From Alphaproteobacteria bacterium (lineage in GTDB: Bacteria; Pseudomonadota; Alphaproteobacteria; JBMOFM01), in assembly GCA_049318825.1 (NCBI GenBank), contig JBMOFM010000006.1, forward strand, positions 50,013-114,012: a stretch of DNA of 64,000 nt, read 5' to 3'. Position numbers and translations under genes: made by a program. The notes under the pieces are model-generated. The model ran no database searches. It was not told the DNA's origin and worked only from the letters and a program-made list of their open reading frames with translations. The stretch's first letter is position 1. Every line of letters begins with the position of its first letter. Shown here in pieces: positions 9,079 through 40,036 of this stretch.

Positions 9079-10314
9079 ATGAATAAAAGCGGGATCAAGA
9101 AAATAGTATTGGCATATTCGGGTGGCTTGGATACATCGGTTATTCTGAAGTGGTTGCAAATTAACTACCAATGTGAGGTGGTAACTTTTACCGCGGATAT
9201 TGGTCAGGGCGAGGAGTTGGAGCCAGCCAGAGCCAAAGCAAAGTTGCTGGGCGTAAAAGATATTTTTATTGAAGATCTCCGCGAAGAATTTGTGCGCGAT
9301 TATGTGTTCCCTATGTTTCGGGCCAATACCCTTTATGAGGGTTGTTATTTGCTGGGCACATCGATTGCACGGCCATTAATTGCTAAAAGGCAAATTGAAA
9401 TTGCCCGTGCCGTTGGTGCGGATGCTGTTGCTCATGGCGCAACGGGTAAGGGTAATGATCAGGTGCGGTTTGAATTGGGTTATTATGCCCTTGAGCCCCA
9501 CATAAAAGTGGTGGCGCCGTGGCGTGAATGGAATTTGAACTCACGCACAAAATTATTGGAATTTGCCGAGCAGCACCAAATTCCAGTGGCGCGGAATAAA
9601 GCAGGCGAGCCGCCTTATTCTACCGATGCTAATTTATTGCATATTTCTTATGAAGGCCGCGTGCTGGAAGATCCATGGGTGGAGCCAGATGAAAGCATGT
9701 ACACCCGTTCAGTGAGCGTGGATAATGCCCCTAATGAGCCAGAATATATAGAAGTTACCTTTGCCGCTGGCGATGCTGTGGCTGTTAATGGTGTGCCTCT
9801 TTCGCCTGCTACCTTGCTCACCCGCTTGAATGAATTGGGTGGCAAGCATGGTATTGGACGTTTGGATTTGGTTGAAAATCGCTATGTTGGGATGAAAAGC
9901 CGTGGTGTTTATGAAACCCCAGGTGGTACCATATTGCTTTCAGCGCATCGGGCCATTGAAAGCATCACGCTTGATCGCGGAGCGATGCATCTGAAAGACG
10001 AAATGATGCCGCGTTATGCTACATTAATTTATAATGGCTATTGGTTTTCGCCAGAACGTAAAGCCTTGCAGGCATTAATTGATGAAACCCAGAAAAGCGT
10101 GAATGGCGTGGTGCGGTTGAAACTGCATAAGGGTAATGTTTCCGTTGTTGGCCGTCGTTCAGCAAATTCCTTGTATCGCTTGGATTATGTTACCTTTGAA
10201 GAAGATGAGGTATATAATCAAAAAGATGCTGAGGGCTTTATTAAATTGAACGCCTTGCGCCTGCGCCTAGGGGCATTGGCTGGTAATGATGGACAGGAGA
10301 TTGCGGCTGAATAA
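9079..10314 (+). CDS. argG: argininosuccinate synthase
   Basis: [11 protein letters not shown]-loop and [13 protein letters not shown]; ArgG type I length. Start moved to the MNKSGIKK methionine. Confidence 0.9.
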
Positions 10315-11377
10315 TAATAGCGCCTTCCCCACCATTGCAAAGCCAGAAGATATTGGGCAGGCGCTTCGCCATGATGTTGTCCATGTATCAATGTTGCTTC
10401 ATGCCTTGCGCATTGGTGGGGTGGTGCCTATTGAGGTTGCTGGCGAGTTTTTTTTATTGGCGGCGTCCAGAGGCGCTAACCAATTTTTTGAAGATATAGA
10501 GCGTTATTCTTCTCCTTCCCCTTTGTGTTACCGTTTTTTTCCAGAACAAGAAGAATTGCGCTTGGAAGTTCATGCTGTTGCTCCCAGCGCTGTTGTTGCT
10601 GAGGTTAATCCTAGGCCTGAGCCTGAGTTATTACAATTTGTGCGTCTTTTATTGCAGCAGGCTCAGATAATGCCCAAGGGGTGGTTGTATCCATTGCCTG
10701 CTCATATTGTAGCGCAGCAAACAGATTTAAAATTTTTGACGCCGCAGCAATTTAATTGTTATCTGCAGCATAAGGATGATCTGGTTGCTGAAAATAGCGT
10801 TTTTATTCCGTTGCCACAAAAAGTGAATGCAGAAATAACAGCATTTAGGACAATTTTTACGGATGAAACCCATGCTGCCCTTAGTTTTTCTGGAAAAAAT
10901 AACCAAGTAGAGCAGCCTTTGTTGGTGCGCATTCATTCAGCTTGTTTTACTGGGGATATATTTCACAGTTTGCGTTGTGATTGTGGCGCCCAATTAGAAT
11001 CAGCTATTAATATGATGGCTGAAGCTGGTGGTATTATTCTCTATCTCATGCAAGAGGGGCGCGGTATCGGTTTGGCCAATAAGTTGCACGCCTATCAATT
11101 GCAAGATCGGGGGTTGGATACTTATCAAGCGAATCAGCAAATAGGTTTTCCTGAAGATGCAAGGGATTATGCTTTAGCTGCTCATATGCTACAAAAAATG
11201 GGCATCACGGATATACGTTTGCTCACCAATAATCCCGATAAAGTCGCAAAATTGCAAAAATTAGGGATAAATGTTGCGGAACGAGTGGGTATTGTGATTG
11301 CGGCCACCCCAGAAAACCGTGATTATTTAGCCAGTAAACAAAAAAAATCCGGCCATTTTTTAGGCCAAGATGTGTAG
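10286..11377 (+). CDS. ribA: GTP cyclohydrolase II (RibA) with a roughly 170-aa N-terminal extension of unknown function
   Basis: The C-terminal 190 aa match RibA: [25 protein letters not shown], the zinc Cys triad, and [11 protein letters not shown]. The N-terminal part lacks RibB (DHBP synthase) motifs. The track start overlaps argG by 29 nt, so the true start may be later. Confidence 0.7.
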
Positions 11378-11531: not shown

Positions 11532-13982
11532 ATGTCATCTCAAAATAATTTTTTTCTGAATAAATTACTTATCGCCAGTTTGGCAGCTCCTTTAGTGTGT
11601 TGGGCTGCTGTTGCTGATGCAGCTTCAAGTAAAGCCAGTCATCCGGCGCATGTATCGGTGGCGCAATCAGGTGCTAAAGGCACTGTGGCCGCAAAAGAAA
11701 GCAAGCGCTCGGCAGTGCAAGCCGAGTCGCCAGAAAAAAATGAGGTAAAATCCTCTGTAAGAGAATCATCGCAATTAATTGATGATTGGGTGCGTAAACT
11801 GGTCGCCTCCAACTACTTATACCACACCAATATTTTAGGCTTGGGCGTGGATAGAGGCACGGAGCTTTCTTTTGTAGAAGGTGAAGCAAAATATTTCTTT
11901 CCAGTGCCTTCAGGGGTGCAGCCTTCAGAGGCCAGTTTTGATTTAGGTGCATCCTATCAATCGGCATTTGCTGGTCAGAGTCACTTACAATTATCCGTTG
12001 AGGATATGCCATTGGCAACCGTTGGTTTAACCTCTACGGATCAGGTTTTATCTTCTCGCTATCCGCTTTCTGTGGCCAATATTTCTCCTTGGATTAAAGA
12101 TGGTTTCTTAGCGGTAAAAGCTAGATATTCAGGCGCCTTCACTAAGGATAGATGCTATGATCAGCGCGTATTGGGGGATCGTTTATATATAACACCGCAA
12201 ACTGGTATCACCTTGTCTTACCCATCCTACCGTATTGATGGTTTAGAAGCGGCGATGCGCTTGTTGCCTCATGAAGTTACCATCAGTTTACCTGCGGGCC
12301 AGTTGGATGAGGGTGGTTTTGAAACAGCCCTGAGCATGGCTTCAAGCTTAACCTCGGCTGGTCATCAGGTGCGCTTTGAGCGTTTGCCACATGCGGGTAT
12401 GTTGGTTAATGCTGTTGGTGGTGCTGCTGAAAAGGCATTGGTTGCTGTGCAGGCGTTATACCCCGATGTGCAAAAAAATGAACGCGGCGTGGTTAATCTC
12501 CCCGATGATCGTTCGGCTTTAGCTTGGGCTTTGGCTATTACCGCTTACGAGGTGGATGATCGTCCATTGTCGGATCATGATAAGCGTCCGGCCAATGGTA
12601 GTATTGGTCAGATTGTGTTAGCCAGTCAGGCTGATCTTGATGCGTTGCGTTCTGTAGCGCAAAATCTGGGGGTGGTAGCTGATCAGCATAATGCCAAAGA
12701 ATTATCGGCATTATTAAAACAGCGTTTCTTGGTGCCAGCAGCATCCACGGCGTTGCAGCAAGATGCCAATGTTTCCCTGTTACGTTTGGGAACACAGCCT
12801 TTGGTGTGGTTGAAGCCTTCAGTGCAAGTTGCAGGTGGTACAGTTACTGGCCAGCCAGCCGCCGCTTGGTTGGGTGGTGTTTGGCAGCCAACGGCTTCTG
12901 GTCAGACCGCTGCTTTAGTGAGCGTGTCGCGTGATCACAATACCGGCAAAAACTTTGTGCCATGGGAAGAATTGCCCCAACAATCAACGGCTATTCAGGA
13001 TATATCCTACCGTGGTAGCTGGGTAGCTTCTGTTCCTTTGTATGCTTTGCCAGCAGGTACCCGCCCTGAGCGTTTGGTGTTGGATATTATGCCGGGTGTT
13101 GATAGTGTTTCCGGCCCAACTATTGCTCAGGTTGAGGTGAATGGTGTATTACTTTACGCTGAGCGTGTAGAACAAGGTAAGGTTCACCGGATTTCTGTGA
13201 CTATTCCAGTGGCTTTGGTTCGTTTGTTTAACACGGTTGAGGTTACTGTTCAGCGGGCATTAGATGGTGGTGATTGCTTGCGCACTCCCGCTTCTTACTC
13301 AGCGCAGCTGTTGCCATCAAGCCGTGTTGAATTATCGGATATGGGCGAGGCATCGGCTTTCCATGATTTAAGCAGCTTGTTTCGTCAGGGGTTGACTATT
13401 TATCTGCCGCAATATGCAGCAGAGCAATCGGAAATATGGTTGGAAGCTTTATCGGCTCTTTCTCCCGGTTTGATTAGCCCTAATATTAACTCAAAAATCC
13501 AGTTTGTGGCTTCTGGGTCAACGCCGGCTAAACCAACTAGTCACTTCCTTGCTTTTGGGGTGCCATTGCCAGAGGGTGTTGTGGAGCCACCAATTTTGTT
13601 GGATAAAGGCCGTGTAACAGTACGTGCTTTGGATAATTCTGTGTTGCTTGATCTTGTTCCTGCTCAACCTTTGTGGGTGGCTCAATTAACCAAAATGAGC
13701 GATTATCAAGGCTTATGGCTATCCAGTCAAGCCATGGTGCCACCTCCAACTTGGAACAAGATTGGTTTGGATAGGGGGGATACTGCATTCTTAGATCGCG
13801 AACGTATTTCCTTATACCTACATTTGCGGTCACCAGCAGAGGCGCGGGTTGAATACCCAGCCACCAGTACAGTTCAGGATGTTTTGAAGCGTTATTGGAC
13901 CGCAGCTTTGGTGTTGTTGTGGTTGGTATTGAGTTTGGTGTTTGCCTTGTATCTGAAGCGGCACTACCGTTCTAAAAACTAA
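11532..13982 (+). CDS. large periplasmic protein with signal peptide and a single C-terminal TM anchor. BcsB-like architecture (putative polysaccharide synthase periplasmic subunit).
   Basis: 816 aa. N-terminal signal LLIASLAAPLVCWAAVADA, then a soluble part of about 770 aa, then a C-terminal hydrophobic helix ALVLLWLVLSLVFALYL followed by KRHYRSKN. It is immediately upstream of a BcsA-like GT2 synthase. The assignment rests on architecture and context only. Confidence 0.4.
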   Translation: MSSQNNFFLNKLLIASLAAPLVCWAAVADAASSKASHPAHVSVAQSGAKGTVAAKESKRSAVQAESPEKNEVKSSVRESSQLIDDWVRKLVASNYLYHTNILGLGVDRGTELSFVEGEAKYFFPVPSGVQPSEASFDLGASYQSAFAGQSHLQLSVEDMPLATVGLTSTDQVLSSRYPLSVANISPWIKDGFLAVKARYSGAFTKDRCYDQRVLGDRLYITPQTGITLSYPSYRIDGLEAAMRLLPHEVTISLPAGQLDEGGFETALSMASSLTSAGHQVRFERLPHAGMLVNAVGGAAEKALVAVQALYPDVQKNERGVVNLPDDRSALAWALAITAYEVDDRPLSDHDKRPANGSIGQIVLASQADLDALRSVAQNLGVVADQHNAKELSALLKQRFLVPAASTALQQDANVSLLRLGTQPLVWLKPSVQVAGGTVTGQPAAAWLGGVWQPTASGQTAALVSVSRDHNTGKNFVPWEELPQQSTAIQDISYRGSWVASVPLYALPAGTRPERLVLDIMPGVDSVSGPTIAQVEVNGVLLYAERVEQGKVHRISVTIPVALVRLFNTVEVTVQRALDGGDCLRTPASYSAQLLPSSRVELSDMGEASAFHDLSSLFRQGLTIYLPQYAAEQSEIWLEALSALSPGLISPNINSKIQFVASGSTPAKPTSHFLAFGVPLPEGVVEPPILLDKGRVTVRALDNSVLLDLVPAQPLWVAQLTKMSDYQGLWLSSQAMVPPPTWNKIGLDRGDTAFLDRERISLYLHLRSPAEARVEYPATSTVQDVLKRYWTAALVLLWLVLSLVFALYLKRHYRSKN

Positions 13983-14024: not shown

Positions 14025-14119
14025 TTATTGGTTTGCTCTGATGCCATTCTACGCTTTTAATTACATCTAGCTAACCATCGTGCTTCATGTGTCTTTAATG
14101 GCTTGAGGCTTTTTTATGT

Positions 14120-16072
14120 TTGCTCTCGAATAAAGTATTTTTCATGTTACGTGCAGACAGTGATATAGGTCAATTTTTGATTGCTAAGGGGTTATTGAGA
14201 TCTGAGGCATGGTTGTCAGCTATTGCCAATGCCAAGATAGATAATAAACCATTATCCGAGGTTCTTCAGCGTGAAGCGGGGATAAATAAGGATGAGTATT
14301 TTCAGTCAACGGCTCAGTATTATAACCTGCCTTATGCAGATCTTGCTGCTTTTCCACCTGATATTTCCTTGTTTAAGTTGGATGATATGCAAGAATATGT
14401 CACCAATCAGGTGGTGCCATGGAAGATGGAAAATGGCAGAATGCTATTGGCAACCGCCTATCCAGGGCCAGATACTTTATTGTATGCCATGCGCCGCTAT
14501 GGTTCTTCTGTTGGCTTGGCGGTAGCTTCCGATGTGGCGGTAAAAAATGCACTACAGCATTTATATGGTGATGAAGCCTCGCATCTGGCTGTGCATGGTT
14601 TGAAAGAGAAGGATATAGACTCTTCTGCTTCTACCGTGTTGACTTTTCCCCAAAAGATATTTCTTTATATTCTTGCGTCTTGTATCCTATTGGGTTTCGC
14701 TTTTGATGGTTGGCGTACCTTATTGGTGATTAATATTGTGATGACATTCTTTTATTTGGGCAATTTTGTGCTTAAATCAGCCTTATTGTGGGTTGGTGGA
14801 CGTACTCGCCGCGTAGAAAATGATCGCTTGCAGTTGATGGCTGATAATCTACGGGATGAAGATTTGCCTGTTTATAGTATTTTAGTGCCTATGTACAAGG
14901 AAGCTCGAATATTAGAGGGGTTGGTGCAAAGTTTGCAGAAACTGGATTATCCGCCAGAAAAGCTTGATATTAAATTGGTGCTTGAGCAAGATGATTTGGA
15001 AACATTAGAAGCGGCCAAAGCCATGAATTTGGATAGCCGTTTTGATGTGGTGATAGTGCCCACAACTTTGCCCAAAACCAAGCCTAAGGCCTGTAATTAT
15101 GCGCTGCATTTTTGCCGTGGCGATTATATTGTTATTTATGATGCAGAAGACAAGCCTGAGCCGGATCAATTGCGTAAGGCTGTGGCGACTTTCAATATTT
15201 CCTCCCCTAAGGTTGTGTGTTTGCAGGCCTGCTTAAATTATTATAATGCCGAAGAAAATTGGCTGACGCGATTATTTACCTTGGATTATTCTTTATGGTT
15301 TGATTTTTTGCTCCCCGGCTTAGAAAAATGGAATATTCCTATTCCGCTGGGAGGGACATCCAACCATTTTAGGATCGCTGCTTTACGTGAGGTATGGGGC
15401 TGGGATCCATATAATGTGACGGAAGATGCGGATTTGGGTTTACGTTTAGCGCGTAAAGGCTATAGCGTTAGTATTGTGCCTTCTACCACTTTTGAAGAGG
15501 CCAATTGCCATATGGGTAATTGGGTAAAGCAGCGTTCTCGCTGGATTAAGGGATATTTTCAAACATTTTTTGTGCATTTACGCACCCCCATTGCTTTGTG
15601 GAGAACCTTGGGAACAAGGGGCTTTTTCGGCTTTTTGTTTTTTATTGGTGGCACCATGCTATCGGGTATCCTTAACCCCATATTCTGGGCAATGTATATT
15701 TTTTGGCTAGTCAGCGGTACCAGTGCCCTTGATCCCATGTTTCCCGGACTATTATTCCATATCAGTTTGTTTAACTTGATGATTGGCAATGGTATATTTA
15801 TTTTCTTGATGTTGGCGGCTCCGGTACGTAGAGGCTGGCTGGAATTGGCACCATTTGCTCTTACCGTATTTTTATATTGGGTGTTGATGTCGATTGCCGC
15901 ATGGCGTGCGCTCATTCAGCTGGTTAAAAATCCTTTTTACTGGGATAAAACGGTGCATGGTATCAGTAAACATAAGAATCAAGAAAATGATAAGGGGGGG
16001 CCATCCTCTGGTAATTTCTCATCGCACAGCTTTAATGACCGCTTGCGTAGTTTGCGTCAAGGGAGGCCATAG
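14120..16072 (+). CDS. processive family-2 glycosyltransferase (BcsA/CrdS-like beta-glycan synthase) with an N-terminal T2SSE_N/MshEN-like cytoplasmic domain
   Basis: 650 aa. About 170-aa N-terminal soluble domain containing IGQFLIAKGLLRSEAWLSAI...PLSEVLQ; two TM helices; a GT-A core with acidic D motifs (DAED) and QRSRW (Q-x-x-R-W); four C-terminal TM helices; then a short tail with no PilZ domain. Confidence 0.7.
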   Translation: MLSNKVFFMLRADSDIGQFLIAKGLLRSEAWLSAIANAKIDNKPLSEVLQREAGINKDEYFQSTAQYYNLPYADLAAFPPDISLFKLDDMQEYVTNQVVPWKMENGRMLLATAYPGPDTLLYAMRRYGSSVGLAVASDVAVKNALQHLYGDEASHLAVHGLKEKDIDSSASTVLTFPQKIFLYILASCILLGFAFDGWRTLLVINIVMTFFYLGNFVLKSALLWVGGRTRRVENDRLQLMADNLRDEDLPVYSILVPMYKEARILEGLVQSLQKLDYPPEKLDIKLVLEQDDLETLEAAKAMNLDSRFDVVIVPTTLPKTKPKACNYALHFCRGDYIVIYDAEDKPEPDQLRKAVATFNISSPKVVCLQACLNYYNAEENWLTRLFTLDYSLWFDFLLPGLEKWNIPIPLGGTSNHFRIAALREVWGWDPYNVTEDADLGLRLARKGYSVSIVPSTTFEEANCHMGNWVKQRSRWIKGYFQTFFVHLRTPIALWRTLGTRGFFGFLFFIGGTMLSGILNPIFWAMYIFWLVSGTSALDPMFPGLLFHISLFNLMIGNGIFIFLMLAAPVRRGWLELAPFALTVFLYWVLMSIAAWRALIQLVKNPFYWDKTVHGISKHKNQENDKGGPSSGNFSSHSFNDRLRSLRQGRP

Positions 16073-16079
16073 GGTAATA

Positions 16080-17915
16080 ATGGCTGATCAAAATAACATG
16101 CACGGTGCGGGTAAGGTTGTCGTTGATTATGATCTTGCGCAATATCGTGGCTTAAAACCATCGGCTGCCGGTAATGTGGCTGAAGAGGCCTCTTTTTTTG
16201 CGGGGGAAGGGCGCATAAAAAAATCTAGCCGTGCATCTGTGTATGATCAACGTCCAGCTTTATCGCGTGGGCAATTGCAGATGTTATTGTGGATGGCCTT
16301 CTTTTTTATTGCCGTGGTGATGGGAAGCTTGTGGTTAATGCATGCTCCATTTTCTCCTGATAATTTGGAAAATTGGGCGGCGGCGATTATTACCCGTGAT
16401 AATATGGATAGTTTTCGGGCTCGTTTTGCGGTGCAGGTATCGCCCTTACCCTTCTGGATCCATTATTTTTTACAATCATTTCCGGGTTTGGGGAATGTGC
16501 CGTCCTCGTGGTTAGCTGCTACTATCGTTCACTCTTTATTATTAATGCAGTGGTACGGCTTGCTGAAAAAAACCAAGGTAGGGCAGTTTTACAGTGTAGC
16601 CTTTGCTCTATTAGCTGGTTTGAACCCCATGGTATTATGGGCGATATGGCAAGGCACGGGCTGTGCTTTGTTGCTTTTCTTTTTTACATGGGCCGCGCGG
16701 GCAGCCTTCTTGGTGCGGCAATTACCCAATGAACGCTCGGTAATGGGGTTTGCGGTGGCGCTTTGTGGGATGTGTTTATCCCACCCCTTGGGTTATTATA
16801 TTTTATTTGGGATGATCCCATTTCTATCCTGGCTGGCAGCCCCGCAGATGCTTGCGCGCAGCATTCGCGGTTATCTCTCGATTATTTTATTCCCTTCCAT
16901 GTTATCCTTAGGGGCTGTGGTTTATCTGCACTGGCTATTTTTGGGCGATGGTTTAATTTTTATTCGTGATGCACAAGGCCCATTTGCAGGTGCTATGCGT
17001 ACCTTGCAACAATCAATATGGGCGATGCGTAATCAGGGCAAAATTATTGAACCCATGGCCTTTTTCTTTGTAGCGTCGGTATTTATTACCCCAGCCTTAA
17101 GCCGTGCATTCTGGTTAAGCAGAGCAAGGTTGTTACGGTTGGTGCCTGCTGCTGTGATGATGATGGGGATTATAGCCGGCGGTACCTTGGCTTCTTCCTT
17201 GGCGTATTTAGATCACCCAGCCACTATTTTATGCTTATATATCAGTTTATTGGCAGCTTTTACGGCCACGGGCGACCGTCCACCACCAGAGCCGCAGCGT
17301 TTGCTTGGCTTAATGTCTGTGGGTTGGTTTGTGGGCTTATTTATTTTATTTGTGTTTCCCAGCAAAAACACGGCTGATTTTTTAAGCGCGATTATTGGCC
17401 GAGAAAGCGAAGAACGGTTGGTTCAAAATCGTTTGATGGCCTTTAGTAGCCATTTTAAGGATTGTGATACCGTGTTGGTGGATGAAGAAGGGGCGTCGAT
17501 ATTAATAGACGGCTATGGGGATGGAAAAAAATTAATGCCGGGTGCTTCCCCTGGATTCTCCCGTTCCGTGTTATCTCGTCGTCCTGAGGGGGATTGTATT
17601 TTAGTGCCGCACCCTGGCAGTAGTGCAGGGAAAAAAGATCGCCTTAATCATGCTTGGCCTAATTTATACAAAGATGGTATTAATGGATATTTTCTGGTGG
17701 GTGAGCAAGATGATTGGCGTTTATATCAACGCTACGGCATGTTGAGAAAAAATCAGAAAATTCAGTTGTTACCAACTTATACACCAAATTCTGCTACACC
17801 AGAAACAGGTAAGCTAGAAAAGGCTACGCCGACAATAGTAAAACCAGAAGAAATAAAACCAGAAACAGTAAAAAATGTAAAACCATTATCGGTTGAAGAA
17901 AAAAAGCTAGATTAG
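16080..17915 (+). CDS. polytopic inner-membrane protein (about 12 TM) with a C-terminal Pro/Lys/Glu-rich tail, function unknown
   Basis: Start reassigned to ATG 16080, 8 nt after the GT2 stop and preceded by GGGAGG. The first 400 aa are many hydrophobic segments, followed by a roughly 200-aa soluble region ending in the repetitive ATPETGKLEKATPTIVKPEEIKPETVKNVKPLSVEEKKLD. The track ORF 15894.. overlaps the GT2 gene and is taken as an over-extension. Confidence 0.5.
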   Translation: MADQNNMHGAGKVVVDYDLAQYRGLKPSAAGNVAEEASFFAGEGRIKKSSRASVYDQRPALSRGQLQMLLWMAFFFIAVVMGSLWLMHAPFSPDNLENWAAAIITRDNMDSFRARFAVQVSPLPFWIHYFLQSFPGLGNVPSSWLAATIVHSLLLMQWYGLLKKTKVGQFYSVAFALLAGLNPMVLWAIWQGTGCALLLFFFTWAARAAFLVRQLPNERSVMGFAVALCGMCLSHPLGYYILFGMIPFLSWLAAPQMLARSIRGYLSIILFPSMLSLGAVVYLHWLFLGDGLIFIRDAQGPFAGAMRTLQQSIWAMRNQGKIIEPMAFFFVASVFITPALSRAFWLSRARLLRLVPAAVMMMGIIAGGTLASSLAYLDHPATILCLYISLLAAFTATGDRPPPEPQRLLGLMSVGWFVGLFILFVFPSKNTADFLSAIIGRESEERLVQNRLMAFSSHFKDCDTVLVDEEGASILIDGYGDGKKLMPGASPGFSRSVLSRRPEGDCILVPHPGSSAGKKDRLNHAWPNLYKDGINGYFLVGEQDDWRLYQRYGMLRKNQKIQLLPTYTPNSATPETGKLEKATPTIVKPEEIKPETVKNVKPLSVEEKKLD

Positions 17916-17970: not shown

Positions 17971-18978
17971 ATGAGGCTGCTTGTTGTAGATGATTCTGAT
18001 ATTTCGCGTGCCATGATTGGTGCTATTCTTAGCCGTGCTGGTTATGAGAATATTATTTTTGCCAATAGTGCCGATGAAGCCTTTGCTATTTTGGATATAG
18101 ATAATAACGCAGAAAAATCAGGCCCGTTGGTGGATTTAATTCTGCTGGATGTGTTAATGCCTAAGGTAAATGGCTTGGAAGCCTGCGCTAGAATTAAGGC
18201 CAATGTGCGTTATCGTCATGTGCCGGTGATTATTGCCACCACTTTAGTGGATGAAGAATATATGGCACAGGCTTTTACAGCGGGTGCTATCGATTTTGTT
18301 ACCAAGCCAGTTTCAGCGTTGGAATTGGTGTGCCGCACCCGCAATGCGCTGAAATTGAAAATGGAGATGGATCGCGCCTTGCAGCGTGAAAATGAATTGG
18401 TGTTATTATTGGCGGAAGCCCGCAGCACTGGTTCTGCTATTGGGATGAAGCTACCGCAGGTAAGCATAGATGTAACCACGGGGTTGCCCAATTTATTAGT
18501 GTTGGAGCATACGGTAGAATGGTTGTGCCAAAACAAGCTGTTTTCGCCCCTATCATTAAGTTTTTTTGAGATTAATGATTTTGCGGCCTATCAAACCTAT
18601 CAAGGGCATCCCGCGGCGGATCGTTTATCATTTTTAGTGGCCACGGCGTTACAGCGCCAATTATTGCATTTGGGGGCCAGTTTATTTCATGTGCGGGCGG
18701 GATTATTTGCCGTGATTGACCGCGATGCAGAATGGGAAAAATTACAACAGAGCGTGCCCGCCATTGTGGATGCTGTTTCTACGTTGCGTTTACCCCACGC
18801 TCATGCCACCGAGGGGGAGATTGTGACCTTGTCGGCGGCGGCGGTTTTTGCGGATAGTGGTCAGCGTTTGCAGCATCACTGGTTGATCAGGGGGGCAGAG
18901 GCCAATTTAGAAGACGCCAAAAAACTGGAAGATAAGCTAAAATTGGTGAAGTTGGTTGATTGGTTAGCGGTGAATTAG
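17971..18978 (+). CDS. response regulator: REC receiver domain plus a degenerate GGDEF-like C-terminal domain
   Basis: REC features: VVDDSD, phospho-acceptor D in LILLDVLMP, and T/K positions. The C-terminal half has a GGDEF-like fold signature (GLPN, INDFAAYQTYQGHPAADRL) but the catalytic GG(D/E)EF position reads RAGLF, so it is probably not an active cyclase. Confidence 0.6.
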   Translation: MRLLVVDDSDISRAMIGAILSRAGYENIIFANSADEAFAILDIDNNAEKSGPLVDLILLDVLMPKVNGLEACARIKANVRYRHVPVIIATTLVDEEYMAQAFTAGAIDFVTKPVSALELVCRTRNALKLKMEMDRALQRENELVLLLAEARSTGSAIGMKLPQVSIDVTTGLPNLLVLEHTVEWLCQNKLFSPLSLSFFEINDFAAYQTYQGHPAADRLSFLVATALQRQLLHLGASLFHVRAGLFAVIDRDAEWEKLQQSVPAIVDAVSTLRLPHAHATEGEIVTLSAAAVFADSGQRLQHHWLIRGAEANLEDAKKLEDKLKLVKLVDWLAVN

Positions 18979-19057
18979 GCTGCATGGATAAGACCCCCAT
19001 AGCCTGCGCTGAGCAGTGGATGGGGGGTATTTTTTACTGGTTGGATTTTTAATAATG

Positions 19058-19864
19058 AAGAACATAACAACATTAAAAATAGTCACATTATTGGCTTGGG
19101 GCGCTGTATTTGGTGCTGGGGAAGCAAGAGCGGGTGCTTGGACATTAAACCCTGGGGTGGGGCAGGTGATCACCAGTATTACCGCGGGTAATGCCAGCAG
19201 CTATTATGCTGATAATAGTGGCAAGAAATTGAATAAAACCGAGCTAACGGTTTATGGCGAATATGGGGTGAACCCATGGCTTACGGCCATTGTTGCGCCG
19301 CGCCAACAATGGTTTCGTTACAAACAAACTGGCTTTGCTAATAATGGCGATTTTACCTCGGTAGAGGCTGGCTTTCGCATGCGTTTATGGCAAAGCAATG
19401 CTTCGGTATTTTCGTTTCAGCTCACTGGTATTACCTCGTTGCGTGATTCTAGCAGTGGCGGTAATAATTTTGGCGGCAAGGGCGTGGAATATGATGTGCG
19501 TGGCTTATATGGCTATGGTATTTCGCCATTTATGGTCTCGAAGGGTGAACATGCCGATTTGTTTAGCCTGCCCATGTATGTGAATGCCGAAATCGCTTTC
19601 CGTGGGCGACCATCGCCATTATCGGATGAGGTGCGCACCGATATTGCCTTGGGCATTAAACCCAGCGATCGTTGGGAAATTCCTTTGCAATATTATGGCA
19701 TTTATGGGTTGGATGATGGTTATACCGGCCATAAGCTGCAATTATCTGGCATTTATGCCGTGGCGCCCGATTGGTTGGTGCAAGGCGGTGGCTATTACAC
19801 TTTTGCGGGGTCTGATTTCCCTAAAGAGCGCGGTGGCTTGCTGGCCGTGTGGAAGAAATTTTAA
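19058..19864 (+). CDS. small outer-membrane beta-barrel protein (possible porin or exporter)
   Basis: Signal peptide LAWGAVFGAGEARA; alternating amphipathic beta-strand pattern; C-terminal aromatic residue (...LAVWKKF), which is the OMP signature. Start moved to MKNITTLK. Confidence 0.5.
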   Translation, partial: KNITTLKIVTLLAWGAVFGAGEARAGAWTLNPGVGQVITSITAGNASSYYADNSGKKLNKTELTVYGEYGVNPWLTAIVAPRQQWFRYKQTGFANNGDFTSVEAGFRMRLWQSNASVFSFQLTGITSLRDSSSGGNNFGGKGVEYDVRGLYGYGISPFMVSKGEHADLFSLPMYVNAEIAFRGRPSPLSDEVRTDIALGIKPSDRWEIPLQYYGIYGLDDGYTGHKLQLSGIYAVAPDWLVQGGGYYTFAGSDFPKERGGLLAVWKKF

Positions 19865-19897: not shown

Positions 19898-21214
19898 ATG
19901 TGTTACACATTGCCCATGCCTTTATCCAGCCCTTCACCAAACCCTAGCGCGGCCGCTTCTGCGGTTGATTCCCTGCAGCAATATCGCTTGCAACAAGTGG
20001 AACAAGAGTTGCAAGAGCTGAAAGCGCGCGCGCAGGAAAGCCAGAAAGACTGGTTGCAGCGTTTAGAAAATAGCCAGAAAGAGTGGCGCAACGAAATTCA
20101 GGTGGAGCGGGATCAATATAACAAATCCGATGAACACCACCTCAATTTATACGAAAAACACCTCAATACGATTAGCGTTATTTTGGGTTTATTCGCAGGT
20201 GTGGTTGTGCTACTGAACTTTTTAGGGTGGCTGTTCGGGCGAAAATGGGTGAATGATTTTCTTGCTAAAAAAATCAATGAAAGCTTGGATAAAAAAGTAG
20301 ATGAACATATTAAAACATTCATTGACCCTCTTGAAACAAAGTTAAAGCAGAAAATTGTAGATCTTGAAGAACAAGGCCAACAGCTAATAGCTGAGCAAAA
20401 ACAGCAAGGCAAGTATCTACAAGCAACCCAATATTATGTGGATGCTGGCCGAGCGCTTGAAGAAAGAAATTATCTCCAAGCGATTGATTTATATAATGAC
20501 GCCATTGAGCTGAACCCGAAATTTGCTGAAGCCTATAATAATCGTGGGAATGCTAAGGCCGCGCTTGGTAAGCATGAAAAAGCAATCGAGGATTATAATG
20601 AAGCGATTAAGTTGAATGAGAATTATGCTGAGGCCTATAATAACCGTGGGAATGCTCATAGAAATCTTGGTGAGCATGAAGAGGCACTGGCAGATTATAA
20701 TAAGGCGATTGAGCTAAATGAGAATCTTGATATGCCCTATAATAATCGCGGGGTTGCTAAAGCAAGCCTTGGGAACTATGAAAAGGCAATCGAGGATTAT
20801 AATGAAGCGATTAAGTTGAATGAGAATTATGCTGATGCCTATCATAATCGTGGGAATGCTAAGGCCGCGCTTGGTGAGCACGAAGAGGCAATCACGGATT
20901 TTGATAAGGCGATTGAGCAGAACCTCAATGATGCCGAGACCTATAATAATCGTGGAGTTGCTAAAGCAAGACTTGGGAAGTACGAAGAGGCATTGGCGGA
21001 TTTTGATAAGGCAATCAGCTTGAAGCATGATTATGCTGGTGCTCATATTAATAAAGCTCGTATTTTTGCGCAGCAAAATCAGCCAACAAAGGCCTTGGTG
21101 GCCTTAGAACAAGCTATTCTCTATGATAAAGGCTTCAAAAAGCAAGCTAAGGAAGAAGCTGTTTTCAAGGTTTTGCAGGATAATCCAGAGTTTATAAAAT
21201 TAACAAAAGAATAG
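19898..21214 (+). CDS. membrane-anchored coiled-coil plus TPR-repeat protein
   Basis: N-terminal coiled coil and one TM (VILGLFAGVVVLLNFLGWLF), then at least 7 near-identical 34-aa TPR units (AEAYNNRGNAKAALGKHEKAIEDYNEAIKLNENY). The DNA-level repeats create antisense shadow ORFs. Confidence 0.6.
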   Translation: MCYTLPMPLSSPSPNPSAAASAVDSLQQYRLQQVEQELQELKARAQESQKDWLQRLENSQKEWRNEIQVERDQYNKSDEHHLNLYEKHLNTISVILGLFAGVVVLLNFLGWLFGRKWVNDFLAKKINESLDKKVDEHIKTFIDPLETKLKQKIVDLEEQGQQLIAEQKQQGKYLQATQYYVDAGRALEERNYLQAIDLYNDAIELNPKFAEAYNNRGNAKAALGKHEKAIEDYNEAIKLNENYAEAYNNRGNAHRNLGEHEEALADYNKAIELNENLDMPYNNRGVAKASLGNYEKAIEDYNEAIKLNENYADAYHNRGNAKAALGEHEEAITDFDKAIEQNLNDAETYNNRGVAKARLGKYEEALADFDKAISLKHDYAGAHINKARIFAQQNQPTKALVALEQAILYDKGFKKQAKEEAVFKVLQDNPEFIKLTKE

Positions 21215-30724: not shown

Positions 30725-32125
30725 TTAAACAGGTAAAATAATTTCCACCATCAATCCTCGATTCCCATCGCTAAACATCGGATTGTTCAATAGTGTGAGT
30801 TTACCCTGATGCATTTTTACAATCGCTTTTACCAAACTTAAACCCAAACCATTGCCGGGAGAATTTCTGGCTGGATCAAGGCGAGTAAAAGGCTCGGTTA
30901 CCTTTTCTCTGGCCGCGGATGGAATACCGATACCCGTATCGGTAATAGTGATAACAACGTAATTCATGTTTCTCTTTAGGCTTAAAAAAACCTCCCCTCC
31001 TTGCTGATTATATTTGATAGCATTATCAATGAGATTAGAAATGGCTTGAATAAGAAGTTCTCGATGAACCTTACCCATCACTTCAGAATCAATAGAAGCG
31101 GTGAATTTTAACCCTTCATCCTCCACTAATGGCTGGTATAAATCAACTATATCTTCTACCAATTGTGAGAGATCAATTTCTGCAAGCGTTGATATTTTTC
31201 TACCCGCTTCAATTTCTGCAATCGATAATAAGGCTTGGAAGGTACGCAATATTTGATCTGTTTCTTGAATAGCGTGATCAATGGCTTGTGAACGGTTTTC
31301 TTCATCCTTATCTTCTAATGCCAGTTCAAGCCTTGTTTTTAAGCGGGTGAGGGGGCTGCGCAAATCATGGGCAATATTATGGGTGACATGACGAATGCCA
31401 ATCATTAAGCGTTCAATATCCGCCAACATATTATTCAAAATTTCCCGCAAGCGATCAAACTCATCTTCCGCGCCGGAAAGCGGAAAACGGTGGCTAAAAT
31501 CCCCCGCCATAATTTCACGGGCATTTTCAGTCACCACATCAATCTGGCGTAACATCCGGTGTGCCATTAACACGCCGCCCACCGTGCCAAAACCTGCCGC
31601 AATTAACAGGGAAGAAATCATGGCATCGAGAATAAGTAGGCGTAAATCTTCCCGCTGTTGTACATCGCGGCCAACGGCTAGGATGCCTTTATCCACAGAA
31701 ATCAATTGTGCCTGCATTAAATGGCCAGAGCGTTTCCCTGAATTGTTGCTAGCAACAAAGCTTTTCCACCCCTTTATTTCATTGGAGAGTAAAGGGTAAG
31801 CTTCGCTGCTATCCACATGTATTCCTGCTATTTCATCCACATATAAATAGAAATTTTCTTCACTTTGTTGTGATTTTTGTTGTACCAGATTAGCCAAGGC
31901 TTGTTTGCCGTCGGTTTTATAAACCGACATCAGCTCATCCATTTCCGTGTACACATGGGCATAGGTTTTGGTGTCGATTTTATCAATAGTGCGCCAGTAA
32001 ATATTGGCCAATACTGCAAGCAGCGAGACATAAAATAACCATGCATACAAAATAATCAGCCGAAAACTGCTGGTGCGTACAAAACGGCGAATGGTTTTTA
32101 ATACATTACTCGGCTTCATGATCAA
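30725..32125 (-). CDS. sensor histidine kinase
   Basis: Two TM helices plus HAMP; HisKA H-box HDLRSPLTRL; HATPase motifs GIGIPSAAREKVTEPFTR and GNGLGLSLVK. Confidence 0.85.
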   Translation of the reverse strand: MIMKPSNVLKTIRRFVRTSSFRLIILYAWLFYVSLLAVLANIYWRTIDKIDTKTYAHVYTEMDELMSVYKTDGKQALANLVQQKSQQSEENFYLYVDEIAGIHVDSSEAYPLLSNEIKGWKSFVASNNSGKRSGHLMQAQLISVDKGILAVGRDVQQREDLRLLILDAMISSLLIAAGFGTVGGVLMAHRMLRQIDVVTENAREIMAGDFSHRFPLSGAEDEFDRLREILNNMLADIERLMIGIRHVTHNIAHDLRSPLTRLKTRLELALEDKDEENRSQAIDHAIQETDQILRTFQALLSIAEIEAGRKISTLAEIDLSQLVEDIVDLYQPLVEDEGLKFTASIDSEVMGKVHRELLIQAISNLIDNAIKYNQQGGEVFLSLKRNMNYVVITITDTGIGIPSAAREKVTEPFTRLDPARNSPGNGLGLSLVKAIVKMHQGKLTLLNNPMFSDGNRGLMVEIILPV

Positions 32126-32798
32126 TCTTCAACATATAGCCATTACCCCGCATGGTGTGCAGCAACATGACATCAAAATCCTTATCCAGCTTTTGCCGTA
32201 GGCGCGAGACATGCACATCAATGACGTTGGTTTGTGGATCAAAATTAATATTCCACACTTTTTCTAGCAACATGTTGCGGGTTACCAATTGTTGGGGGTG
32301 GCGCATAAAAAATTCTAACAGGGCAAATTCTCTTGGTTTCAGCTCTAATTCAATGCCCTGCCGCCATGCTTGCCTTGTAATTAAATCTAAGGTTAATTCT
32401 CCCAATGTAAGCCTTGTTTGCGTGCTATTCGCATTTCGTCGCCGCCCTAATACTTCTATTCTGGCCAGTAACTCAGTAAAAGCAAAAGGCTTGGTGAGAT
32501 AATCATCGCTACCACCTTTAAGGCCGGTGAGGCGATCATCCAACTGCCCCAAGGCACTTAAAATAAGGATGGGTGTATCATTACCATCTTCTCGTAAGGC
32601 TTGGATGACCGATAAACCATCTTTTTTGGGGAGCATGCGGTCAATGACCAACACATCACATAATTTTTGGCGAGCAGCTTCTAGGCCAGATTCACCATCC
32701 GCACAATGCACCACCTGATGACCAGCATCTTGCAGGCCCTTTACCACTAAGGCGGCTGCTTTTTCATCATCTTCTACCAAAAGGACATTGAGCCCCAT
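32106..32798 (-). CDS. OmpR-family response regulator
   Basis: REC (LLVEDDE, D in VLVIDRMLP) plus a winged-helix C-terminus. Overlaps the kinase gene. Confidence 0.85.
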   Translation of the reverse strand: MGLNVLLVEDDEKAAALVVKGLQDAGHQVVHCADGESGLEAARQKLCDVLVIDRMLPKKDGLSVIQALREDGNDTPILILSALGQLDDRLTGLKGGSDDYLTKPFAFTELLARIEVLGRRRNANSTQTRLTLGELTLDLITRQAWRQGIELELKPREFALLEFFMRHPQQLVTRNMLLEKVWNINFDPQTNVIDVHVSRLRQKLDKDFDVMLLHTMRGNGYMLKIDHEAE

Positions 32799-32851
32799 AT
32801 TTTTCTCCATGTTGGTATATCGGTAACCATTTTTCTCTATGATCTACCATA

Positions 32852-34450
32852 ATGGATAATAGTCAAGAAAACCAACCGCTAATCGCTTTAGGCTCGCTGC
32901 GTGCAAAATATTTGCCACGGGTGAAAGATATTATCACCATGGAAAAAATCTCCCGCATGCATCGGGGGGATTTGGCCTATGAGGTAAAAAAAATTATCAC
33001 CGAAGAGTTGGCGCGCGACGGGGTGGAGCTTAACCGCCTCGATCAGCGGGATTTAATCACCCTTGTGTTGAATTTATTGGTGGCAGAAACCAGTGCTACC
33101 CCCACAGCAGAAATACCCGCGCCCACAATCATTGAAAAACCAGCCCCCATTGCTGAAATACCAGCTCCACCACCGCCAGCTGCATCTTCTGCTCGCCCAC
33201 GGGTGGAAGCAGCGCGCAACCAAATACAAGGGTTATTGCTGGATAGAATTGATGCCAGTGCCGCAGCACGGCTACCACGCAATGAGTTGCAGCAACAAAT
33301 TATTGAGTTGGTAGGCGATTTATTGGTTGAAAAAAGAATGCAGCTTACCGGCCCTGAAACCTTAGAGCTGGTAGAAAAGCTGCTGGATGATATGCTGGGT
33401 TTTGGGCCATTAGAACCTCTATTGGCCGATGAAACCGTAACCGATATTATGGTGAACGGCCCAGCCAATGTGTATGTTGAGCGCAAAGGCAAGCTAACAC
33501 TTACCGATGTAAAATTTCGTAATAATGCGCATGTGATGGCGATTGCCACCAGAATTGTAACAGGGGTGGGGCGGCGGGTGGATGAATCGGTACCCCTGTG
33601 CGATGCCCGCTTACCAGATGGTAGCCGCGTGAACATCATTATTCCGCCACTTGCAATTGATGGGCCTTCTATTTCTATTCGTAAATTTTCTAAGAAAAAA
33701 ATTACCTTAGAAACCATGGCCAACCAAAATAATATTTCCCCTGCCATGCGCCGCGTTTTAGAAATAGCAGGGAAATGTCGCCTGAATATTTTAATTTCTG
33801 GCGGTACGGGTTCTGGAAAAACCACCATGCTGAACGCCATTTCAAAAATGATTGATGAGCAAGAACGCATTGTTACCATTGAAGATGCCGCTGAGCTGCA
33901 ATTACAGCAGCCGCATGTGGTGCGCTTGGAAACAAGGCCAGCCAATTTAGAAGGCGATGGCGAAATTTCCATGCGTGATTTAGTAAAAAACTCGCTGCGG
34001 ATGCGCCCCGACCGTATTATTCTAGGCGAGGTGCGCGGCGCAGAAGCGGTGGATATGTTGCAGGCCATGAATACAGGCCATGATGGCTCGCTGGCAACTA
34101 TTCACGCTAACCGCCCGCGTGAAGCCATTACGCGGTTGGAGAATTTGGTGGGCATGGCTGGTATTAATTTAGCGCCGCGCGCTATTCGCATGCAAATTGC
34201 CTCGGCTGTGGAAATTATTGTACAAATCAGCCGCATGCGCGATGGTGTGCGCCGCGTGACCTATATCACTGAATTGGTGGGGCTGGAAGGCGATATTATT
34301 TTAATGCAGGATTTATTTACCTATGAGGTAACAGGTGAAGGCGAAGATGGTAAGCTGATTGGCCAATTCAAATCTTCTGGCTTGCGCCCACATTTTTACC
34401 CCAAGGCAGAATATTTTGGTTTGGGAAAAGCCCTCATGGAATTGATTTAG
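32852..34450 (+). CDS. cpaF: CpaF/TadA-type secretion ATPase (type II/IV secretion NTPase), orphan
   Basis: Walker A ILISGGTGSGKTT; Asp/His boxes (IVTIEDAAEL, GHDGSLATIHANRPREAITRL). There is a long N-terminal region with a Pro/Ala-rich linker (IPAPTIIEKPAPIAEIPAPPPPAASSARP). No other tad/cpa genes are in the window. Confidence 0.75.
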   Translation: MDNSQENQPLIALGSLRAKYLPRVKDIITMEKISRMHRGDLAYEVKKIITEELARDGVELNRLDQRDLITLVLNLLVAETSATPTAEIPAPTIIEKPAPIAEIPAPPPPAASSARPRVEAARNQIQGLLLDRIDASAAARLPRNELQQQIIELVGDLLVEKRMQLTGPETLELVEKLLDDMLGFGPLEPLLADETVTDIMVNGPANVYVERKGKLTLTDVKFRNNAHVMAIATRIVTGVGRRVDESVPLCDARLPDGSRVNIIIPPLAIDGPSISIRKFSKKKITLETMANQNNISPAMRRVLEIAGKCRLNILISGGTGSGKTTMLNAISKMIDEQERIVTIEDAAELQLQQPHVVRLETRPANLEGDGEISMRDLVKNSLRMRPDRIILGEVRGAEAVDMLQAMNTGHDGSLATIHANRPREAITRLENLVGMAGINLAPRAIRMQIASAVEIIVQISRMRDGVRRVTYITELVGLEGDIILMQDLFTYEVTGEGEDGKLIGQFKSSGLRPHFYPKAEYFGLGKALMELI

Positions 34451-39247: not shown

Positions 39248-40036
39248 GTGAGTAATGAAGCAGCCGAAATGGAAGCACAGGAAAAATATAGCACAATGAT
39301 GCTGGCGGTGGATGCGATCAGAGCCTATCAAGAAAAAAACTCTGATTTTATTTGGCAGAGAAAAGAAAATTTTCTGAGCGAATATCGACAGGGTCGGCGT
39401 GATTTTGCAGGTGAAGATTTGCGCGGGTTGTGCCTTGAATATAGCGGTATCCCACAATTTGAGAATTTAGTGCTGGATGATGCTAATGTAAGTGGCAGTC
39501 AATTCACAAGAGTAAAGTTCATTAATTTAAGCGCGAAAAATGCCCTATTCACTGATGTGGAAATGATAGAGATTATTGCTGAAGGGGCTGATTTCAGCGG
39601 TACTAATTTAGATAATATTGATGGTCATGAAGCCAGATTAGGCGGTTCAAATTTTTTTGGTGCGTCCCTCATTTATGCAAGTTTACGAAAAAGCAGTTTA
39701 TGGGAGTGTAATTTTACCGATGCGGATTGTACTTATGCCCAATTGAATGAGGCAAGCCTGAGAAGAGCAGATTTATGGAAAGCGTGTTTCTTGGCCGCCG
39801 GTCTTACAGAGGCTAAATTACAAGAAGCGAAATTGTACGATGCGGATTTTAGATTAGCGAACATTAGCGCCGCAAAATTTGAAAAGGCCGTGCCCAATAG
39901 CCAAACAATATGGACGGGCAGCCGCAATAGCCCTGAATCATTGCCAGAAGGCATGACGGCAGAGGCATTCAGCCAATTACAAAACCCTTCTGTAAAAAAA
40001 GCTGCCCCTAAAAGAAAGTTGGGATTGTGGTGGTAA
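39248..40036 (+). CDS. pentapeptide-repeat protein, paralog 1
   Basis: 262 aa, possible GTG start. The central region has runs of A-[DN]-[LF]-x-x pentads (ADFSGTNLDNIDGHEARLGGSNFFGASL...ADLWKACFLAAGLTEAKLQEAKLYDADFRLANISAAKF). Confidence 0.65.
   Translation: MSNEAAEMEAQEKYSTMMLAVDAIRAYQEKNSDFIWQRKENFLSEYRQGRRDFAGEDLRGLCLEYSGIPQFENLVLDDANVSGSQFTRVKFINLSAKNALFTDVEMIEIIAEGADFSGTNLDNIDGHEARLGGSNFFGASLIYASLRKSSLWECNFTDADCTYAQLNEASLRRADLWKACFLAAGLTEAKLQEAKLYDADFRLANISAAKFEKAVPNSQTIWTGSRNSPESLPEGMTAEAFSQLQNPSVKKAAPKRKLGLWW

Follow-up and report, generated by a model that had tools for sequence, protein, structure and literature searches.

A divergent XagB/Sfz2-family synthase of an uncultured alphaproteobacterium with a predicted eroded nucleotide site in its MshEN domain

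Background

Fusions of the MshEN domain to glycosyltransferases were described by Wang et al. (2016, PMC5013675), who predicted that proteins of this architecture are controlled by cyclic di-GMP (c-di-GMP). Their Supplementary Table 4 lists two arrangements, namely 'Glyco_trans_2_3 - MshEN', represented by NfrB, and 'MshEN - Glyco_trans_2_3', represented by R. sphaeroides Rsph17029_0522 and distributed among Actinobacteria, Firmicutes and Proteobacteria. The gene considered here (14144..16072, + strand) encodes a putative polysaccharide synthase with exactly the latter domain order, and is located on a 64,000-nucleotide stretch of contig JBMOFM010000006.1 of an uncultured alphaproteobacterium (assembly GCA_049318825.1). 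This whole stretch is referred to as the window; coordinates are those of the window and residue numbers those of the 642-amino acid form of the synthase. The listing of Rsph17029_0522 is a bioinformatic prediction, and the window protein fails the relaxed motif by which Wang et al. (2016) counted MshEN domains. In the genome table of the same study Rsph17029_0522 shares a column with MshE, NfrB and PA3740, and VcPilB, GspE and HofB are placed in a different column.

Among MshEN-glycosyltransferase fusions, both binding of c-di-GMP (dissociation constant, Kd: 1 uM) and a requirement for it have been demonstrated for NfrB of E. coli only (Junkermeier & Hengge 2021, PMC8669469). Like the window protein, it joins a processive family 2 glycosyltransferase (GT2) to MshEN via two transmembrane (TM) helices, but its domain order is reversed, with an N-terminal GT2 and a C-terminal MshEN, and its partners are NfrA and YbcH. 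The MshEN motifs of NfrB are fully conserved (12 of 12 contact positions in the relaxed classes described below), as against 8 of 12 in the window protein, which furthermore scores only 14.8 bits on the NfrB model (NF008411; cut-off: 1170) and thus falls outside this type. In the BcsA-BcsB cellulose synthase, too, a processive synthase carries a regulatory domain in the cytoplasm. Among solved structures it comes closest to the window protein in the catalytic and membrane part, and it has a further counterpart in the BcsB-like gene upstream of the window synthase. BcsA, however, senses c-di-GMP through a C-terminal PilZ domain, for which no Pfam match is found in the window synthase, and the latter scores far below the cut-offs of both BcsA models (TIGR03030: 66.4 against 699.1 bits; NF008558: 44.3 against 992 bits).

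The closest described relatives are the synthases of Xanthomonas biofilms and of the stalks of iron-oxidising bacteria. XagB of the Xanthomonas biofilm cluster xagABC(D) has the same MshEN-like segment, TM helices and GT2 domain, and the X. cucurbitae and Xanthomonas sp. proteins share 47% amino acid identity with the window protein over residues 8-615. Their motifs I and II, however, read LLG...Q and RLGD, where the window protein has DIG...A and PLSE, and neighbours encoding BcsB-like, XagC and XagD proteins, which are present in the window, were not detected beside the Xanthomonas genes with the searches used. The xag cluster is under transcriptional control by c-di-GMP, and xagABC has been predicted to encode an undiscovered c-di-GMP receptor (Roelofs et al. 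2015); no report of c-di-GMP binding by XagB itself was found in the literature searched. In the stalk-forming iron oxidisers, the Sfz2/Sfb2 loci have the same bcsB-like/xagB/xagC/xagD order as the window, and this cluster has been proposed to function in stalk formation (Kato et al. 2015, PMC4643136). Koeksoy et al. (2021, bioRxiv 10.1101/2021.03.12.435129) described Sfz2 with the same two domains, an N-terminal EpsE-like domain (IPR007831) and a GT2 with QxxRW, DxD and TED motifs, as in the window protein. The nearly full-length homologue of Mariprofundus (M. micogutta; 45% identity) keeps RIGD...RLGD where the window motifs are eroded. The likeness to the stalk clusters implies no link between the window host and iron-oxide stalks, and genetic evidence for biofilm or stalk exopolysaccharide production comes from Xanthomonas only.

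A last group for comparison comprises MshEN domains which do not bind the nucleotide, those of X. campestris XpsE (2D27/2D28) and of P. aeruginosa and V. cholerae PilB, together with the X. citri PilB-N:PilZ complex (7LKO). The window domain shares their fold, and their loss of contact residues is comparable to that in the window (strict score of 4-5 out of 12; 10-29 bits on the profile described below). They are, however, carried by secretion and pilus ATPases rather than by a glycosyltransferase, and XpsE and the PilB proteins have lost Gly11 and Gly18, both of which are kept in the window domain.

Family assignment and distribution of the synthase

A protein search with the window synthase returned at least about 8000 scored matches. 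The 119 closest homologues among the matches listed share 46-54% identity with it and all combine PF05157 with GT2, and many of them have been named "glycosyltransferase XagB" by the Joint Genome Institute. Scanning a single genome for each species placed relatives in at least 599 species, which belong to the Alpha-, Gamma- and Zetaproteobacteria, Actinobacteria, Chloroflexi, Firmicutes, Cyanobacteria, Bacteroidota, Aquificota and other taxa. With homology over its full length and the domain order MshEN-like segment, TM helices, GT2 and C-terminal TM helices, the window gene is predicted to encode a divergent processive GT2 exopolysaccharide synthase of the XagB/Sfz2 family. The original prediction, which was made from the sequence of the window, considered such a fusion a novel link between c-di-GMP and polymer synthesis; given that the architecture was catalogued in 2016 and the family is widespread, this novelty falls away.

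Homology and predicted fold of the N-terminal domain

The resemblance of the synthase N-terminus to MshEN, on which that proposal was built, is upheld by both the Pfam match and structure prediction, which establish homology rather than chance over about 160 putatively cytoplasmic residues. The match to PF05157 is significant (residues 68-154; E=8.7e-11; 42.1 bits against a cut-off of 23.1), and spans only the C-terminal α/β (MshEN_C) half of the domain; the Pfam MshEN model leaves out the nucleotide-binding helices (Wang et al. 2016, PMC5013675). Longer alignments were obtained in a phmmer search of PDB sequences, where T. thermophilus PilF (E=4.9e-7) and Geobacter PilB were matched over residues 14-164, and with NCBIfam models, where residues 16-165 align to positions 2-152 of the PilB model TIGR02538 and, in the NfrB model NF008411, to the MshEN region of NfrB. 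V. cholerae MshE (5HTL) was not retrieved with the N-domain by phmmer against PDB sequences, even at E<=10, and was recovered by the Foldseek fold search only, and its closeness to the window domain at the sequence level is therefore low.

Residues 1-170 were modelled with AlphaFold2 (AF2) and 50 homologues (predicted local distance difference test score, pLDDT: 83.3), and the model consists of a four-helix bundle followed by an α/β subdomain. The 20 best Foldseek matches of this model in the PDB are all MshEN-type, rather than of a different fold, and include 5HTL, 8PDK, 7LKO and 2D28; the PilF GSPIIB domain with bound c-di-GMP is among the matches. The match to 5HTL_B, which is MshE with c-di-GMP, has a target-normalised template modelling score (TMt) of 0.81, a root-mean-square deviation of 2.5 A and an E-value of 2.7e-6. 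The fold match was rejected as evidence of c-di-GMP binding, as the binders (5HTL, 8PDK) and the non-binders (2D28, 7LKO) are matched about equally well. The predicted MshEN_N subdomain comprises residues 1-62 (14144..14329, +), with AF2 helices at residues 2-14, 20-33, 37-45 and 49-59, and the MshEN_C subdomain residues 63-156 (14330..14611, +), with the PF05157 match and AF2 strands at 90-96, 99-104 and 123-127 with flanking helices. The original prediction of some 120 further residues with the α/β pattern of T2SSE_N is thus borne out by the domain match and the predicted fold alike.

Within MshEN_N, the 53 residues DIGQFLIAKGLLRSEAWLSAIANA-KIDNK-PLSEVLQREAGINKDEYFQSTAQY align without gaps to residues 9-61 of MshE, as two 24-residue motifs separated by a five-residue spacer. 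The equivalents of motif I (DIGQFLIAKGLLRSEAWLSAIANA, residues 7-30, 14162..14233, +), compared with the consensus RLGxxLLxxGLLxxxxLxxxLxxQ, and of motif II (PLSEVLQREAGINKDEYFQSTAQY, residues 36-59, 14249..14320, +), placed by alignment to MshE, are likewise in gap-free register, spacer included, with NfrB, M. xanthus PilB and Moth_1554. A profile of the 62-residue MshEN_N subdomain, built from other members of the family, gives the window N-domain 22.4 bits, where the best of 2000 shuffled sequences reaches 9.9.

Erosion of the nucleotide-binding half

The residues that contact c-di-GMP in MshE are largely replaced in the window domain. The original prediction noted that the leading Arg of the motif is missing, which is correct (R9 in MshE, D7 in the window), but this is far from the sole loss, and R9, L25, Q32, R38, G40, I44, G47, F48, L58 and Q61 of MshE are all changed. 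Across motif I, L10, D12, L25, L29 and Q32 of MshE correspond to I8, Q10, W23, I27 and A30, and the glycines G11 (G9 in the window) and G18 (G16) are kept. At the start of motif II, R38, G40 and D41 are replaced by P36, S38 and E39, with L39 kept as L37, and in the remainder I44, G47, F48, L54, L58 and Q61 are replaced by Q42, A45, G46, Y52, T56 and Y59. Among the 117 closest homologues motif I begins with xLGD (G in 113 and D in 102) and motif II with RLGD (R in 101, G in 93 and D in 113), while the window protein has DIGQ and PLSE, respectively.

Neither half of the window N-domain matches the relaxed 24-residue pattern of Wang et al. (2016), [RKPN]hGxxhhxx[GAS]hhxxxxhxxxhxx[QNKRYWST]. As a lone test of binding this pattern was discarded, since it also fails in 106 of the 120 closest homologues and is too strict for the family, and position scores and the family profile were therefore used in its place. 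The position score considers six contact positions per motif, 12 in total, in relaxed and strict residue classes. On this scale the window protein scores 8/12 relaxed and 4/12 strict, as compared to 11-12 relaxed and 10-12 strict for proven binders, and 5-6 relaxed and 4-5 strict for the proven non-binders (XpsE, P. aeruginosa PilB and V. cholerae PilB). At least 10/12 relaxed positions are present in 51 of 67 XagB-family members from different species, and it was from these 51 that the MshEN_N profile was built. The profile separates MshE (76.4 bits), the alphaproteobacterial consensus (75.8) and NfrB (50.4) from XpsE (29.3), P. aeruginosa PilB (15.5) and V. cholerae PilB (10.7), with the window protein at 22.4. 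It ranks below every one of the 119 closest homologues (median: 63.1 bits), of which only one other sequence, an N-terminally truncated fragment, scores below 30 bits. By two measures, the window N-domain thus lies within or close to the values of MshEN domains shown by experiment not to bind.

Divergence of the two halves of the domain was compared with that in pairs matched for divergence of the GT domain, using two outgroup lineages (P0002 and P0091). MshEN_N shares 23% identity with its relatives, as against 39±4% in the matched pairs, none of 78 being as low, while the identity of MshEN_C to the family is normal (40% against 40%). The erosion is thus restricted to the nucleotide-binding half of the domain. 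No relative with the same eroded motif was found; the next full-length homologue is 54% identical, and no closer N-domain was present among 1.84 billion representative sequences, where the best match has 34% identity.

High-affinity c-di-GMP binding by the window N-domain is most likely weakened or lost, because the contact residues of both half-sites are replaced while the α/β half and the synthase are conserved normally. Several points weigh against this reading. Gly11, Gly18, Leu10/Leu39 and Leu14 are kept, and positions 25, 29 and 54 are still hydrophobic. In the relaxed pattern of Wang et al. (2016) the first motif position may be Pro and the 24th Tyr, motif I of NfrB itself carries Pro, and Ser or Thr at Gly40, which is found in 18 of 117 close homologues, may be tolerated. 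Single substitutions of Arg9 or Gln32 in MshE reduce affinity less than fivefold (Wang et al. 2016, PMC5013675), so that low-micromolar binding may persist. Furthermore, the matched comparison draws on those two outgroup lineages only, the binding scale is calibrated on ATPase-type MshEN domains and NfrB only, and a literature search found no binding measurement for any XagB-type protein. Retention of physiologically useful binding is, as such, a substantial minority possibility.

Bacteroidota members of the family (Mucilaginibacter and others; loci L025, L029, L030, L032, L033, L035-L037, L039, L054, L070, L079 and L081; example SIPEILVADGFISPADQEKIHAFSERSGMSYLKIALNFGY) retain an N-terminal segment of similar length, in which the MshEN_N motifs are essentially gone (~0 bits). 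The pattern of this segment upstream of GT2 is still recognisable, and the N-domain can thus persist without a recognisable motif.

Catalytic and membrane parts of the synthase

The N-domain is linked to the glycosyltransferase by two hydrophobic helices (approximately residues 171-211; 14654..14776, +), predicted from the Kyte-Doolittle hydropathy of KIFLYILASCILLGFAFDGW and TLLVINIVMTFFYLGNFVLK and from an AF2 helix at 168-218. The GT2 catalytic domain (14873..15703, +) is matched by PF13632 (E=5.9e-28), PF13641 and PF00535, and contains DAED (residues 333-336; 15140-15151, +), TED (residues 426-428; 15419-15427, +) and QRSRW (residues 463-467; 15530-15544, +) motifs, read from the sequence. 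Three or four C-terminal TM helices (15656..15925, +), with hydrophobic stretches at residues 505-523, 535-561 and 566-594 and AF2 helices at 482-524, 535-563 and 566-595, probably form the polymer channel. From the even number of TM helices we infer that both soluble domains are cytoplasmic. The full-length AF2 model (pLDDT: 85.4; predicted template modelling score, pTM: 0.86) matches BcsA, hyaluronan synthase and chitin synthase in Foldseek at E ~1e-14, and the top phmmer match among solved structures is likewise BcsA (E=1.7e-10). The window protein is predicted to be a processive, membrane-integrated polysaccharide synthase because of its GT motifs, its TM helices and its modelled likeness to these three enzymes.

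The reading frame and the residues quoted in the original prediction are located exactly where it placed them, and the 642-amino acid product from ATG 14144 is 100% identical to an NCBI protein (P0001, "MAG: Alphaproteobacteria bacterium", 642 aa), for which this ATG is used as the start. An alternative start, TTG 14120, would extend the open reading frame (ORF) to 14120..16072 (+) and the product to 650 amino acids. The start codon is uncertain, because GAGG is situated 11 nt upstream of the TTG (region 14105-14146) and no clear ribosome-binding site is seen in the bases preceding the ATG; the whole N-terminal domain is retained with either start.

Gene cluster and neighbouring genes

The synthase gene forms part of a cluster with the order BcsB-like, XagB, XagC-like, response regulator receiver (REC) with degenerate GGDEF, and XagD-like, which is also observed in Nitrospirillum, Amorphus coralli and several other proteobacterial loci. 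Homologues of the BcsB-, XagC- and XagD-like genes occur in the same order in loci L001, L002, L005-L011, L014 and L015. The BcsB-like gene (11532..13982, +; PF03170, E=6.2e-6, 25.3 bits against a cut-off of 21), which encodes a putative periplasmic partner, corresponds to the 'bcsB-like CDS9' of Kato et al. (2015, PMC4643136), and homologues are found immediately 5′ of xagB in Nitrospirillum, Amorphus, Novosphingobium, Mariprofundus and others. The XagC-like membrane protein gene (16080..17915, +) is taken to start with ATG 16080, just past the xagB stop codon. Its product has no Pfam match, and homologues lie immediately 3′ of xagB in 10 of 80 species loci, as well as in L001, L002 and L004. 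The XagD-like gene (19055..19864, +) codes for a probable outer-membrane protein with a signal-peptide-like N-terminus and no Pfam match; its Nitrospirillum counterpart shows a weak Phenol_MetA_deg match, and homologues adjoin xagB in 12 of the 80 loci.

Between the xagC- and xagD-like genes, a response regulator gene (17971..18978, +; Pfam REC, E=6e-22; GGDEF, E=1.3e-11) is inserted which distinguishes the window from the stalk clusters and is shared with other Alphaproteobacteria. It was not found described in the xag and sfz literature examined. When aligned with PleD, its GGDEF signature reads AGLF rather than GG[D/E]EF, and the operon counterparts have DAATL (Nitrospirillum) and GNDLF (Amorphus). 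The RxxD I-site is absent from the window regulator, and RLGD occupies that position in Amorphus. The gene has the same operon position in L005, L006, L007, L010 and L002, and counterparts between xagC and xagD are located at 11419-12375 in L001 and 11364-12326 in L002. The encoded REC-pseudoGGDEF protein is predicted to be a conserved non-catalytic accessory protein of the cluster. A role of this gene as a local source of c-di-GMP was considered and rejected on the AGLF signature and its degeneracy in the orthologues too. No other GGDEF, EAL, HD-GYP or PilZ gene was found in the 64 kb window, which says little of the whole genome.

In Amorphus coralli, the region immediately upstream of the BcsB-like gene (L002 1341-6038) contains genes for a hybrid histidine kinase with a PAS domain, a single-domain REC protein and an Hpt protein, all three on the strand of the cluster, as well as a gene for an EAL protein on the opposite strand. 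This arrangement suggests a phosphorelay input to the cluster in this species.

A gene for a GH113 (beta-mannanase family) protein is located 34 kb from the window cluster (50494-51555, -). GH113 genes lie directly beside the cluster in Nitrospirillum (L001 4705-5598), where a ManC GDP-mannose gene is found nearby, and in Beggiatoa (L004 12277-13326). The polymer made by the window synthase may be mannan-like.

Additional genes flank the cluster. Directly after xagD, a 438-amino acid protein (19898-21214, +) combines an N-terminal coiled-coil/TM segment with about six tetratricopeptide repeats, and no homologue of it was found beside xagB in any of the 80 related loci. Just upstream of the cluster, ORF 10286-11377 (+) encodes a GTP cyclohydrolase II (RibA-like) domain at residues 181-334, preceded by an N-terminal extension of about 180 residues without a Pfam match, and overlaps the end of argG by 29 nt. 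A CpaF-like T2SSE ATPase (32852-34450, +) was examined as a second MshEN carrier and rejected, its first 200 residues having neither a Pfam match nor an MshEN motif; a proline/alanine-rich linker is found within this region, and the gene is adjoined by a HAMP histidine kinase and OmpR-type regulator pair (30725-32810, -). Two adjacent paralogous pentapeptide-repeat proteins of about 260 amino acids each (39248-40036 and 40190-40966, +) and a CsgA-like amyloid subunit of 369 amino acids with curlin-associated repeats (53582-54691, -; PF07012, E=2e-32) are also encoded in the window.

Functional interpretation and alternative explanations

Taken jointly, a divergent XagB/Sfz2 synthase with an eroded MshEN site, whose c-di-GMP binding is probably weak or lost, is the reading that we favour, if by a modest degree of confidence. 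By analogy with NfrB, as a GT2-MshEN protein of micromolar affinity, and with BcsA and its PilZ domain, the architecture would ancestrally be gated by c-di-GMP. In the window N-domain the ancestral nucleotide contacts would have been lost in both half-sites, with the α/β half and the synthase retained. The degenerate domain has probably been retained in a structural or regulatory role, such as that of an autoinhibitory or partner-docking surface, and control may have shifted to the phosphorylatable REC-pseudoGGDEF protein of the operon and to transcription. There is precedent for the retention of a degenerate domain in the Bacteroidota members of the family, and for a change of partner in X. 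citri PilB-N, which binds a PilZ protein rather than the nucleotide and is found in the second-ranked Foldseek match (7LKO). A docking role for a degenerate MshEN domain is therefore conceivable.

The foremost alternative is that the N-domain is a working c-di-GMP receptor, in which the nucleotide, once bound by the four helices, would release the GT2 domain from inhibition, as in NfrB and as has been predicted for XagB-type proteins. The intact and confidently modelled fold, the half-sites in register around the five-residue spacer, and the preservation of Gly11, of both hydrophobic residues at motif position 2 and of most core hydrophobics (8/12 relaxed) are what would be expected of such a receptor, as are the near-canonical motifs of most of the family (51 of 67 species at 10/12 or above) and the c-di-GMP-controlled Xanthomonas xag cluster with its predicted receptor. 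The strict score and the profile score, however, place the domain among or near proven non-binders, PLSE stands in the place of the family RLGD of motif II, Leu58 and both Gln residues are lost, and fast divergence is selective for MshEN_N. The gene context argues in the same direction, as the sole GGDEF-type gene of the cluster has no catalytic signature and no other GGDEF, EAL or PilZ gene was found in the window, the latter being a weak argument as to the whole genome. We regard a working receptor as a possible, but less probable, account of this protein.

A further explanation overlaps with the favoured reading and represents its most specific form, namely a repurposing of the degenerate MshEN_N bundle for the docking of another protein, with the signal most plausibly supplied by the REC-pseudoGGDEF regulator. 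It draws on the X. citri relay, in which PilB-N binds PilZ and PilZ binds FimX, on the rank of the PilB-N:PilZ complex among the structural matches, on the full-length pTM of 0.86, which implies that the N-domain is placed on the synthase in a defined way, on the REC-degenerate GGDEF gene, which several alphaproteobacterial relatives share at this place in the operon, and on the hybrid kinase, REC and Hpt genes just upstream in Amorphus. The response regulator is a candidate partner, however, and its gene also accompanies relatives with well-conserved motifs (Nitrospirillum, L007). Its presence is therefore independent of site erosion and provides by itself no argument for repurposing. We consider this repurposing unlikely, and doubt still further the specific proposal that the bundle, without reading c-di-GMP, serves the REC-pseudoGGDEF protein as a docking site for switching the synthase.

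Lastly, a chance match of the motif in an unrelated helical N-terminus, for which it might be said that a Leu/Gly-rich 24-residue pattern alone carries little information, is refuted by the Pfam match, the PDB sequence matches over the whole 150 residues, the uniformly MshEN-type Foldseek matches, the failure of all 2000 shuffles to reach the profile score and the conservation of the domain across the family, and can be set aside as barely credible.

Conclusions

As a discovery the fusion itself carries little weight, since the MshEN-GT2 architecture has been on record since 2016 and is that of the XagB/Sfz2 synthases known from biofilms of Xanthomonas and from the stalks of iron oxidisers. 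Should the docking explanation prove true, an exopolysaccharide machine ancestrally gated by c-di-GMP would have been rewired to two-component control independent of the nucleotide, in parallel to the Xanthomonas PilB-N/PilZ/FimX relay but on a glycosyltransferase. For the family as a whole, the near-canonical XagB-type members of Xanthomonas, Nitrospirillum, Chloroflexi and Firmicutes are the right test cases for binding, and the window protein and the Bacteroidota members are natural eroded-site variants and possible negative controls. We suggest that such variants could show what the domain does once the nucleotide is no longer bound.

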